A DNA stretch of 10,461 bases from a virus (Duplodnaviria; Heunggongvirae; Uroviricota; Caudoviricetes): the IMG/VR virus record IMGVR_UViG_2657245081_000002; one strand, 5' to 3'. The notes below the pieces were generated by a model. It was not told the origin of the DNA. It saw only the letters and a program-made list of their open reading frames with translations, and did no database searches. The first letter of the stretch is position 1; each line of letters opens with the position of its first letter. The position numbers and the translations under genes were made by a program. Below are positions 5,239-5,960 of the stretch, piece after piece.

Positions 5239-5341
5239 GGTGAAAACGGGCGTCAGGCTGCCGTGATGGCAATATNNNNNNNNNNATTGATATGGCTTTA
5301 GTAGCGGTATCAATATCAGCAGTAGAATAAGTTTTCCCGAT

Positions 5342-5418
5342 GCATCCGTAGCTCAGCTGGATAGAGTACTCGGCTACGAACCGAGCGGTCGGAGGTTCGA
5401 ATCCTCCCGGATGCACCA
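5342..5418 (+). tRNA. tRNA-Arg (anticodon ACG), copy 1
   Basis: 77-nt sequence gcatccgtagctcagctggatagagtactcggctACGaaccgagcggtcggaggttcgaatcctcccggatgcacca is the E. coli argQ/Z/Y/V-type tRNA with encoded CCA. Confidence 0.95.
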
Positions 5419-5480
5419 TCTCTTACTTGATATGGCTTTAGTAGCGGTATCAATATCAGCAGTAAAATAAATTTCCCGAT

Positions 5481-5557
5481 GCATCCGTAGCTCAGCTGGA
5501 TAGAGTACTCGGCTACGAACCGAGCGGTCGGAGGTTCGAATCCTCCCGGATGCACCA
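5481..5557 (+). tRNA. tRNA-Arg (anticodon ACG), copy 2
   Basis: Identical 77-nt tRNA sequence, 62 nt after copy 1. Confidence 0.95.
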
Positions 5558-5691
5558 TATTCTACGTACTTTCAGCGATGAAGGTATGGAAGAGGTGGCG
5601 GTAATAACCGCAGGCACCAGGGAGGATAACGTTGCTTTAGCAACGGCCCGAAGGGCGAGCCGCAAGGCGAGTAATCCTCCCGGATGCACCA
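5558..5691 (+). repeat. Inter-tRNA spacer element ending in a copy of the last 19 nt of tRNA-Arg (aatcctcccggatgcacca, 5673-5691)
   Basis: About 115 nt of non-tRNA sequence containing ggataacgttgctttagcaacggcccgaagggcgagccgcaaggcgagt, fused to an exact copy of the tRNA T-stem and acceptor 3' strand plus CCA. It is followed by the same 62-64-nt leader that precedes every tRNA copy. Confidence 0.8.
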
Positions 5692-5755
5692 TCTCTTACT
5701 TGATACGGCTTTAGTAGCGGTATCAAAAAATCTGCAGTAAAGTAAGTTTCCCGAT

Positions 5756-5832
5756 GCATCCGTAGCTCAGCTGGATAGAGTACTCGGCTACGAACCGAGC
5801 GGTCGGAGGTTCGAATCCTCCCGGATGCACCA
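5756..5832 (+). tRNA. tRNA-Arg (anticodon ACG), copy 3
   Basis: Identical 77-nt tRNA sequence. Start-to-start spacing from copy 2 is 275 nt, which matches my recollection of the chromosomal arg tRNA cluster. Confidence 0.95.
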
Positions 5833-5960
5833 TATTCTCCGAAATCTTCAGCAATGAAGGTATCGAAGAGGTAGCGGAATTAACCGCAGGCACTAGGGAT
5901 GATAACGTTGCTTTAGCAACGGCCCGAAGGGCGAGCCGCAAGGCGAGTAATCCTCCCGGA
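5833..5960 (+). repeat. Second copy of the spacer element (about 90% identical by eye to 5558-5691), cut inside the tRNA 3'-end copy by the N-run
   Basis: tattctccgaaatcttcagcaatgaaggtatcgaagaggtagcgg...ggataacgttgctttagcaacggcccgaagggcgagccgcaaggcgagtaatcctcccgga aligns with 5558-5685, with scattered substitutions. Confidence 0.8.

Follow-up and report, generated by a model that had tools for sequence, protein, structure and literature searches.

Long spacers of a tandem tRNA-Arg(ACG) array as probable tRNA-linked repeats of the serV-arg operon, related to RtT

A tandem array of tRNA-Arg(ACG) genes at positions 5286 - 5960 contains long spacers that close with a copy of the tRNA's own 3' terminus, raising the question whether this copy is the relic of an integration event or part of an RNA that is processed in its own right. 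The array lies in the window, i.e., the whole stretch of 10,461 nucleotides analysed, which consists of 24 short pieces of a draft assembly linked by N10, and it coincides exactly with one of these pieces (675 nt). Because it is a separate piece, its neighbours in the window (prophage and Rhs fragments) are not its genomic neighbours. The first-pass annotation of this DNA recognised neither the region as an isolated draft contig nor the spacer family as one that had already been named (TLRs, raV/raZ/raQ).

The tRNA-Arg array and its long spacers

The piece holds three tRNA-Arg(ACG) genes with their leaders and two copies of an element of about 134 nt, all on the + strand. The 77-nt tRNA genes (5342 - 5418, 67.1 bits against RF00005; 5481 - 5557; and 5756 - 5832) were called by both ARAGORN and Rfam and were identical to each other, as had been read before. 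The leader of the first gene (5286 - 5341) matched the K-12 leader upstream of argQ. The second gene was preceded by a spacer of 62 nt without element (5419 - 5480), matching the K-12 argY-argZ spacer and containing the inverted repeat TTGATAT...GTATCAA. The leader of the third gene (64 nt; 5692 - 5755) matched the K-12 leader upstream of argY, its first 35 nt being the same as those after a real tRNA. The conserved leader formerly claimed for each tRNA gene was thus retrieved in a graded form, with ungapped identities of 94% and 63%, the first leader being partial at the contig start.

The first long spacer (5558 - 5691) contained a complete element of 134 nt, of the same type as K-12 raV (downstream of argV), and the second one (5833 - 5960) matched K-12 raZ (downstream of argZ). 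Both were 94% identical over 114 nt (5571 - 5684 versus 5847 - 5960). The first element was closed by the exact 19-mer AATCCTCCCGGATGCACCA (5673 - 5691), a copy of tRNA positions 58 - 76 (AAUCCUCCCGGAUGCACCA) that comprises the end of the T-loop, the 3' strands of the T-stem and the acceptor stem, and ACCA. A 54-nt block, consisting of the last 19 nt of the tRNA and the first 35 nt of the leader, accordingly occurred at 5400 - 5453 and 5673 - 5726, with 98% identity. The second element is ended by a run of N at 5960, 7 nt short of its CCA end, so that the claim that both spacers end in the tRNA 19-mer, followed by the leader, stood for the first spacer, while the second one showed 12 of the 19 terminal nucleotides, its downstream leader being out of view. 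Three exact tRNA copies and a 94%-identical pair of 114 nt within 675 nt are far beyond chance.

These features correspond to those of the tRNA-linked repeats (TLRs), of which PMC8144298 (with reference to Egan & Landy 1978 and Rudd 1999) counts 22, spread over 10 K-12 loci and each closing with 18 - 19 nt of the upstream gene. Indeed, each of the two elements begins at the base after a tRNA-Arg CCA, within an operon of stable RNAs, and repeats the 3' end of the upstream gene as far as the sequence extends. The comparison with the arg region of reference genomes, which had been proposed as a check, matched the elements with the spacers that follow argV and argZ in K-12, at a locus for which raQ, raZ, and raV are listed. 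K-12 and other complete genomes displayed the gene order csrA-serV-argV..argQ-yqaB at the matching locus. The region is therefore probably part of the serV-argV/Y/Z/Q operon of an Escherichia/Shigella-type genome, its long spacers being TLRs, i.e., diverged relatives of RtT that are folded and likely processed in the manner of tRNAs. Compared with raV/raZ/raQ of K-12 (serV-argVYZQ; EcoGene), the locus, the sequence type, the 18 - 19-nt copy of the tRNA 3' end, and the position in a stable-RNA operon are shared, and no essential difference was found, the window copy differing in unit order and in the truncation of its second element. This is a confirmation of a known element rather than a discovery: it had been noticed in 1978 and entered into a catalogue in 1999, and names for the arg copies already existed, so that as a discovery it carries little weight. 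What is added here is the conservation and structural constraint of the arg copies throughout an entire bacterial order, and the fact that Rfam-based annotation overlooks them.

The order of the spacers in the piece differed from that in the K-12 arg operon, and it is quite possible, albeit less probable than a genuine arrangement, that it was produced by a short-read assembler, because the 77-nt tRNA is an exact repeat across which the assembler may have chosen. The contig is bounded by N linkers, both its ends fall within repeats, and no complete genome matched the whole piece in a single alignment, the best match (99.0%) being in three pieces. However, the unusual leaderQ-tRNA-leaderZ junction was found unbroken and 100% identical, in one piece, in the complete genome of strain FACU 2024, and the arrays are truly polymorphic between genomes, namely (T, tRNA; E, element) T-E-T-T-E-T-E in K-12, T-E-T-E-T in O103, and T-T-T-E-T in FACU 2024, with many further patterns among species. 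Moreover, such an artefact would affect the unit order only and not the reality of the elements. Whereas this polymorphism is observed directly, its cause may be sought in unequal homologous recombination, for which the identical tRNAs and the 54-nt repeats would supply the substrate and which would alter the number and order of the units between strains. A practical effect is that TLRs break short-read assemblies, making the tRNA-Arg copy number uncertain in draft genomes.

Conservation and predicted fold of the element

The element was present across the Enterobacterales. Across 48 species, its 60-nt core was 81% identical, whereas identity was down to 45% in the 5' half and 39% in the leader, and the unpaired junction nucleotides of the core were strongly conserved too. 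The terminal 18-mer was exact in 147 of about 185 copies across species, around 20% of the copies having a degenerate 3' end. In the genome scan, copies had to carry an exact 3' 16-mer, so that this strand was fixed; a loose regular expression for the core gave false matches in coding regions (the class with seven to eight mismatches), which were left out.

The complete copy (5558 - 5691) had a minimum free energy of -60.3 kcal/mol (z = -5.41). The predicted fold consists of two variable 5' hairpins, followed by a helix resembling the acceptor and T-arms that ends in ACCA. The variable 5' half (5561 - 5611) comprises hairpin A (5561 - 5593) and hairpin B (5598 - 5611), and it folds as two hairpins in 70 of the 84 non-redundant homologues. 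The 5' strand of the acceptor/T-stem-like helix (5614 - 5625; GCACC at 5614 - 5618, A, and GGGAGG at 5620 - 5625) is predicted to pair with 5676 - 5687. Modelled in this way, the helix would mimic tRNA-Arg where its acceptor and T stems are stacked, the 3' strand being supplied by the last 18 - 19 nt of the tRNA, including CCA, and a conserved core of three hairpins takes the place of the T-loop. These are core hairpin 1 (5630 - 5645; CGUUGC-UUUA-GCAACG), core hairpin 2 (5646 - 5656; (G)CCC-GAA-GGG(C)), and core hairpin 3 (5656 - 5671; a C-G closing pair, tandem G.A/A.G, and GCC-GCAA-GGC). Both small hairpins noticed earlier (gccc-GAA-gggc and gcc-GCAA-ggc) are present in the element.

Covariation was assessed on the core realigned alone, because RNAalifold on a full-length MAFFT alignment gave a poor consensus, in which the invariant tail was folded into a trivial AUCC/GGAU hairpin and hairpin 3 was wrongly aligned; the structure to be tested was specified by hand. 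In this alignment, 97.2% of the cells were paired versus 92.8% in shuffles, and 58 cells were changed on both sides versus 13.8 in shuffles, neither value being reached in any of 500 shuffles; slid controls gave 33 - 52% paired. G-U pairs were tolerated on the + strand. Hairpin 1 was paired in 99.8% of its cells, with compensatory changes in three pairs, whereas the stem of hairpin 2 was almost invariant, so that its covariation speaks neither for nor against it. In hairpin 3, all four Watson-Crick pairs showed compensatory changes, and the G.A and A.G pairs were kept in 81 - 82 of the 84 sequences. In the acceptor-like helix, only one-sided changes are visible, as the search pattern kept its 3' strand constant, and most of these keep a wobble pair. 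The folding and covariation analysis over homologous spacers, suggested in the first-pass annotation, thus found compensated hairpins. A pair C46-G35 closing hairpin 2 was rejected because of seven A-C mismatches, in favour of a 46-65 pair closing hairpin 3 (CG 71, UA 7, UG 4). The Rfam consensus of RtT pairs the hairpin-2 nucleotides otherwise.

Relatives of the arg elements

Against the RtT model of Rfam (RF00391), the arg elements scored 29.2, 33.8, and 23.3 bits (the latter for the second copy; E = 2e-5 to 0.04), below the gathering threshold of 45 bits, so that no match was obtained at the gathering cut-off; K-12 copies of the other operons scored 133 - 137 (tyr), 101 (proK), 47 - 60 (lys), and 36 - 46 bits (serX). 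Because their scores of 23 - 34 bits fall below 45, arg TLRs are missed by Rfam-based annotation. Yet, an arg element matches the 3' half of the model residue by residue, namely the core followed by the host tRNA 3' end. Homology was taken as settled by the Rfam matches and direct comparison of the sequences. The likeness to the tyrT repeats that had been pointed out was correct and reflects homology rather than analogy, given RtT matches at E = 2e-5 to 1e-3 and the near-identical core, which is common to the arg, tyrT, lysT, proK, and rrnB repeats and precedes a gene-specific 3' end in the Tyr, Lys, Pro, Ser, and 5S rRNA repeats.

The RtT RNA (RttR) of tyrT-tyrV shares with the arg copies the homologous core (AACGUUGC-loop-GCAACGGCCCGAAGGGCGAG-hairpin-CGAGUAAUCC), and both occur in tandem and close with the 3' end of their own tRNA, including CCA. 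The arg copies are a short form, about 134 nt versus 171 - 178 nt, with an unrelated 5' half and without the TTCGA remnant, the extra GA-flanked hairpin, and the AUGAGAA hairpin. In the long forms, the T-stem 5' strand and TTCGA precede the core, and ATCC and the T-stem 3' strand follow it, placing the core within the T-loop. The description of the unit as a tRNA gene of which the 5' part had been replaced was thus close, and one way to view the family is as an acceptor/T-arm of a tRNA in which a common module replaces the T-loop.

The RrA, RrB, and RrF RNAs of rrnA, rrnB, and rrnD, located between two terminators (PMC8144298), belong to the same TLR family and share core hairpins 1 and 2. Like the arg copies, they close with the 3' end of the gene that lies upstream, and their ends, as mapped, are consistent with processing by RNase E. 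They follow a 5S rRNA gene and a terminator, whereas the arg copies sit between tRNA genes, and they carry loop GGA motifs and bind CsrA and Hfq in vitro, whereas the arg copies lack those motifs. The spacer sponge 3'ETS-leuZ of a tRNA operon, a functional RNA that the enzymes of tRNA processing cut from a tRNA precursor, may resemble the arg elements in principle only, its sequence being unrelated. In E. coli, TLRs occupy about ten of the most highly transcribed operons, including the T1-T2 region of rrnB.

Origin, processing, and possible role

Integrases use the tRNA 3' end from the T-loop onward as an integration sublocation, and the long spacers could accordingly be neutral duplication debris or a decayed integration site, of which the 19 nt were duplicated as attL/attR and which would have no present function. 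The geometry fits, as downstream of an intact tRNA come foreign sequence, the 3' end repeated from the T-loop onward, and the original downstream leader; in addition, copies were gained and lost between strains, and the fraction of degenerate 3' ends points in the same direction. However, unlike attL/attR duplications, with which it shares the direct repeat flanking an inserted sequence, the insert is only about 115 nt, conserved, and structured. Ten loci carry the same core, downstream of different tRNAs and of 5S rRNA, and no integrase remnant is present. The core pattern had zero matches among the 2.9 million viral contigs of IMG/VR, and a phage collection returned three matching records, none of them an unambiguous phage copy, two being scaffolds of bacterial genomes and the third, labelled 'Salmonella phage', a 7.4-kb record without annotation that matched 41% of the query. 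Debris had been expected to be unconserved and free of covariation, which is contradicted by the order-wide conservation of the core relative to its neighbouring spacers and by the compensatory changes in hairpins 1 and 3. Such debris is therefore very unlikely and, as an account of the present state, largely refuted. A selfish module of which the core spreads by T-loop insertion or by recombination at GTTCGA/ATCC, being removed harmlessly by tRNA processing, is somewhat unlikely; it would explain the origin of the elements and is compatible with their processing as TLRs. It agrees with homologous cores behind Arg, Tyr, Lys, Pro, and Ser tRNAs and 5S rRNA with gene-specific T-stem/acceptor flanks, with the bracketed core of the long forms, and with an arg copy of Serratia that retains 17 of the 18 nt of the tRNA variable loop and T-arm ahead of the insert. 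Nevertheless, no enzyme, terminal repeat, or fixed-length target duplication is evident, the rrnB copy is joined to the 5S rRNA without a T-loop, and the order-wide conservation, together with the recurrence of copies at matching loci, points to vertical descent over ongoing movement.

Conservation, covariation, and fold all speak for the alternative already raised in the first-pass annotation, a processed structured RNA with a tRNA-like 3' end. The element is most likely co-transcribed and, by homology with RttR and RrB, cut out by tRNA-processing RNases, for which the repeated 3' end would be the signal. Co-transcription with the tRNAs would start from a single promoter, as a simple scan retrieved one promoter-like site, upstream of serV, and none within the leaders. 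Since the TLR bears a tRNA 3' end and, after it, the trailer that a real tRNA has, tRNA-maturation enzymes would excise it and the repeated 3' end would be a processing signal rather than a relic. Cleavage by RNase E would fall immediately 3' of each CCA, after which exonucleases would trim back, and the 5' side of the acceptor-like helix may be a further cleavage site, for RNase P. In K-12, the annotated RttR extends from 7 nt past the tyrV CCA to exactly the CCA of the repeat, and the mapped ends of RrB lie 3 nt past the 5S end and 3 nt past the repeated 18-mer, for which the authors propose recognition of the repeat by RNase E. In the lysT operon, the TLR-containing spacers (133 - 150 nt) are treated as spacers, the tRNAs being separated by RNase P, removal of the long 3' trailers is ascribed to RNase II and PNPase, and no stable spacer RNA is reported (PMC4176162), so that TLR RNA may be degraded rather than released. 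For the arg copies (raQ/raZ/raV; argY/argZ/argQ spacers), no experiments on transcript ends, stability, or phenotype were found in the literature. A strain deleted for all 22 TLRs is listed as constructed, so that the elements appear dispensable in the laboratory; the strong core conservation argues for some cellular role.

Such a role could be that of a trans-acting small RNA, the excised RNA of about 134 nt or a 3' product of about 78 nt binding a protein or RNA partner and acting as a regulator, as proposed for RrA/B/F of the rrn operons with Hfq and CsrA. The strongly conserved core, including its junction nucleotides, the processing of RrB and its binding of Hfq and CsrA in vitro (PMC8144298), and the annotation of RttR as a stable RNA are in line with this, but it is unlikely, as the early rtT phenotype was retracted (PMC8144298) and the lys operon lacks a reported stable spacer species (PMC4176162). 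A CsrA-binding role, considered because csrA lies directly upstream and RrB binds CsrA, was set aside, as the arg copies have no GGA in their hairpin loops and the 19 tRNA-operon TLRs scored below 0.01 in a predictor of CsrA binders (PMC8144298). That the spacer codes for a small protein, like the protamine-like Tpr ORF annotated in the tyrT repeat, is most improbable: an ORF of 54 codons (5550 - 5714) spans the element, and K-12 tpr overlaps the homologous core, but the ATG of the 54-codon ORF lies inside the tRNA 3' end, the variation is of the stem-compensating kind, and the reading frame is not conserved, with a stop in 65 of the 84 non-redundant homologues and no open frame at all in 43, so that a coding function was rejected. 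A further reading, held to be rather unlikely, is that the core and the acceptor/T-stem-like helix form a functional tRNA-minihelix mimic under purifying selection in about ten stable-RNA operons throughout the Enterobacterales. It would act either in cis, where it would help RNase P, RNase E, or 3' exonucleases to dock or to work in order while the precursor matures, or as a decoy for a factor recognising tRNA acceptor/CCA ends, and its origin may possibly be a module able to move into T-loops. If so, it would represent an unrecognised class of processing element and not a spacer.

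tRNA-Arg array and its chromosomal context

The region 5286-5960 (675 nt) is exactly one of the 24 short pieces that make up the window, which are joined by runs of ten N (N10) and do not form a continuous genome stretch. Parts of lambdoid prophage proteins (Rha, tail assembly protein I, tail fibre N-terminus) are encoded on the remaining pieces, along with island genes (DUF932, DUF1398) and an Rhs repeat. The window looks like a concatenation of small repeat-derived contigs from a draft assembly, so that its other pieces are uninformative about the tRNA-Arg piece. Both ARAGORN and Rfam retrieved three mutually identical tRNA-Arg(ACG) genes (5342-5418, 5481-5557, and 5756-5832), and a repeat finder retrieved their three related leaders and two long elements (5558-5691 and 5833-5960) that are 94% identical across 114 nt, as described in the first-pass annotation. 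The element starts at the base right after the tRNA CCA and has the tRNA 3' end as its terminus, and the 35 nt that come next are those found downstream of a real tRNA. The final 19 nt of the tRNA and 35 nt of leader form a 54-nt block that occurs after a tRNA and again after the first element. The exact tRNA 3' end plus leader, which had been ascribed to both elements, is visible for the first one (tRNA-identical end at 5673-5691); the second is truncated by the contig end 7 nt short of its CCA. A tRNA-Arg(TCG) overlapping the second tRNA-Arg (5501-5572, minus strand) was called by ARAGORN only, had no Rfam support, and looks like a mirror-image false positive.

Every one of the 5,426 complete E. 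coli genomes matched the piece. The locus reads alaS-csrA-serV-argV-argY-argZ-argQ-yqaB in K-12 and other genomes, and alignment to this region, as proposed earlier, placed the window elements at the K-12 spacers downstream of argV and argZ. With T for tRNA-Arg and E for the element, the K-12 array is T-E-T-T-E-T-E, its last E having a diverged hairpin 3 and a retained 16-nt tRNA 3' end. The array of the O103 strain RM8385 (T-E-T-E-T) misses the third E compared with K-12, a clean gap between the short repeats, and that of strain FACU 2024 is T-T-T-E-T. The spacer order in the window is unlike that of K-12. Its unusual junction is present in FACU 2024 at 100% identity, so the order could be genuine; alternatively, the assembler could have generated it in passing through the exact 77-nt repeat. 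A single sigma-70-like promoter was found, upstream of serV, in agreement with a serV leader of 52-56 nt (PMC7049720), and the element lies within a single operon. The arg-operon elements carry no RefSeq annotation.

Relationship to known repeats and distribution

The element is a tRNA-linked repeat (TLR) and as such already known, the present work confirming the observation. [quoted passage not shown] The strain table of the same paper gives raQ, raZ, and raV, the arg copies, together with argY/Z/Q, and lists a strain deleted for all 22 TLRs. At the gathering threshold, Rfam returned tRNAs only, the elements giving no match to RtT (RF00391; threshold of 45 bits). A permissive Rfam search matched them to RF00391 at 29.2, 33.8, and 23.3 bits (E of 2e-5 to 0.04), and the K-12 TLRs scored 133-137 bits (tyr), 101 bits (proK), 47-60 bits (lys), and 36-46 bits (serX). 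Direct comparison of the tyr, lys, pro, and arg repeats revealed a common core (AACGUUGC-loop-GCAACGGCCCGAAGGGCGAG-small hairpin-CGAGU(A/C)AUCC), succeeded in each case by the 3' end of its own tRNA. The likeness to the tyrT repeats that had been noticed therefore reflects homology. The window element is a diverged RtT relative, sharing with RtT RNA a core followed by the host tRNA 3' end, but scoring below 45 bits. In K-12 rrnB (L129, ~1030-1110), core hairpins 1 and 2 (GAACGTTGCGAAGCAACGGCCCGGAGGG) and then a copy of the 5S rRNA 3' end lie between the terminators T1 and T2, a region that also serves many cloning vectors as terminator cassette. The K-12 gene tpr (L123, 1288-1377, minus strand), annotated as 29 codons for a 'protamine-like protein', is contained entirely in the tyrT repeat's conserved RNA core; the AUGAGAA-hairpin loop holds its ATG, and its arginine-rich product derives from reading GC-rich stems.

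For each species, one genome was scanned for a tRNA-Arg 3' end whose last 16 nt recur 100-130 nt further on, which yielded at least 120 loci. After removal of plain tRNA-tRNA pairs, elements were found among these loci in Escherichia, Shigella, Salmonella, Citrobacter, Klebsiella, Raoultella, Enterobacter, Kluyvera, Leclercia, Lelliottia, Buttiauxella, Cedecea, Siccibacter, Pantoea, Erwinia, Brenneria, Pectobacterium, and Serratia. Degenerate copies occurred in Shigella flexneri (L007), with one C of the CCUCCC run lost and a shortened tRNA-identical end, and in Pluralibacter (L017), with one copy truncated after hairpin 2 and fused to a leader. The array of Klebsiella sp. WOUb02 (L097), TLRs included, is located on a 774-kb replicon labelled 'plasmid unnamed6', which may be a chromid or have been mis-assigned. 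tRNA-Arg arrays of the Enterobacterales type were also present in records under the names Chryseobacterium, Brevibacterium, and Vagococcus (L042, L054, and L089), the first also with TLRs, which probably represents contamination or mislabelling of assemblies.

Across 48 species, mean pairwise identity was 81% for the 60-nt core upstream of the tRNA-identical end, 45% for the 5' half of the element, and 39% for the leader to the next tRNA. Since all three segments belong to the same transcript and no tRNA could serve the core as a gene-conversion template, this contrast indicates purifying selection on the core.

Predicted fold and covariation

A four-helix structure was tested on an alignment of 84 non-redundant cores. 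Standard pairs occupied 97.2% of the cells versus 92.8% in shuffles, a level reached by 0 of 500 shuffles, and both sides had changed in 58 cells versus 13.8 expected (again 0 of 500). With the partner slid by 1-3 columns as a control, merely 33-52% of the cells were paired. Hairpin 1 (5630-5645) showed compensatory changes in three pairs, CGUUGC/GCAACG being CAUCGC/GCGAUG in Erwinia and CACUGC/GCAGUG in Siccibacter. All four Watson-Crick pairs of hairpin 3 (5656-5671) showed such changes, one pair being GC in 50 sequences, CG in 27, and UA in four; the tandem G.A/A.G positions of its stem were retained in 81-82 of the 84 sequences, and the C-G pair closing them was U-A in seven. Hairpin 2 (5646-5656) is nearly invariant, so that covariation is no test of it, and its bases are paired otherwise in the RtT consensus of Rfam. 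Beside hairpin 1, the purines at 5629/5646 (alignment columns 18/35; A.G 76, G.A 5, A.A 3, G.G 0) suggest a conserved non-canonical pair or a base triple. The G-U pairs tolerated on this strand fit an RNA in the tRNA sense.

The complete window copy folds at -60.3 kcal/mol (z = -5.41), the predicted order being two 5' hairpins, a long helix around hairpins 1-3, and ACCA. The 5' half folds as two hairpins in 70 of the 84 homologues despite differing sequence. In the predicted closing helix, GCACC-A-GGGAGG pairs with CCUCCC-GG-A-UGC, a 3' strand equal to tRNA positions 61-72, so that this helix may plausibly mimic the T stem stacked with the acceptor stem in tRNA-Arg. Where its 5' strand varied, a wobble pair was mostly retained (UG 14, GU 11), the 3' strand being fixed by the scan and two-sided changes hence unobservable. 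The folding and covariation analysis called for by the first-pass annotation lends comparative support to a conserved fold and to reading the element as tRNA-minihelix-like.

The spacers could also have been neutral duplication debris, for which a lack of conservation and covariation had been named as the sign; the contrast in conservation between the core and the other segments across 48 species and the compensatory changes speak against this. A coding function can be set aside as well: the ORF at 5550-5714 begins inside a tRNA and is interrupted in 65 of the 84 homologues, with no open frame in 43. A CsrA sponge is rejected too, as the arg copies have no GGA loop motifs and published predictor scores for tRNA-operon TLRs are below 0.01 (PMC8144298). 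The homologous tyrT core, conserved fold, and tRNA-like 3' end support the original interpretation overall.

Possible origin, processing, and role

Long forms (tyr, proK, serX, the last lys copies, and the Serratia arg copies) consist of a T-stem 5' strand, TTCGA, the core, ATCC, the T-stem 3' strand, the acceptor 3' strand, and CCA, their core having one extra GA-flanked hairpin. A Serratia arg copy retains 17 of 18 nt of the tRNA variable loop and T-arm ahead of the insert. Given this layout and remnant, the family looks like tRNA copies with a common module in the T-loop and decayed 5' parts, TTCGA having shrunk to AUA in the arg and most lys copies. As the module is homologous behind different tRNAs and its flanking stems are tRNA-specific, it must at some point have passed from one gene to another. 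It could have done so by insertion, or by recombination at the T-loop sequence, which is conserved; the rrnB copy, having no T-loop, shows that these routes are an incomplete account. Sequence searches gave no phage link for the element: the core pattern had no matches in 2.9 million viral contigs, and a phage collection matched in three records only, two of them scaffolds of bacterial genomes and the last a 7.4-kb 'Salmonella phage' record that carries no annotation and matched 41% of the query.

The K-12 annotation of RttR, the RtT RNA of tyrT-tyrV, starts 7 nt past the tyrV CCA and ends exactly at the repeat CCA. The ends of RrB, an rrn-operon TLR small RNA, were mapped 3 nt beyond the 5S end, where RNase E is known to cut, and 3 nt past the repeated 18-mer, and its authors put forward RNase E recognition of the repeat (PMC8144298). 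By homology with both, the arg elements would be separated from their tRNAs by tRNA-maturation enzymes, the repeated 3' end probably being the signal; conjecturally, an RNase P cut 5' of G5614 would yield a 78-nt product of tRNA size. In work on the lysT operon, TLR-bearing spacers of 133-150 nt are treated as trailers that RNase II and PNPase remove once RNase P has cleaved, RNase E cleaving them only when RNase P is defective (PMC4176162), which, by analogy, would count against a stable product from the element. The element may aid or time precursor processing in cis, act as an RNA in trans, or be a selfish module that is tolerated; its conservation favours the former two over the latter.

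In the Serratia arg repeats (L003, 3032-3182; L024, 2157-2303), an intrinsic-terminator-like hairpin (AAAAACCCGCTTCGGCGGGTTTTT) separates the tRNA from the repeat. This layout recurs in the K-12 proK, serX, lysQ, and lysV repeats, where the terminator is duplicated on both flanks. Judged from this arrangement, repeats behind such terminators would be transcribed solely via read-through. Finally, a single 28-nt CRISPR-DR4 match (50 bits, threshold 35) was found ~100 nt downstream of serW in K-12 (L126, 954-981), distant from the known K-12 CRISPR arrays.
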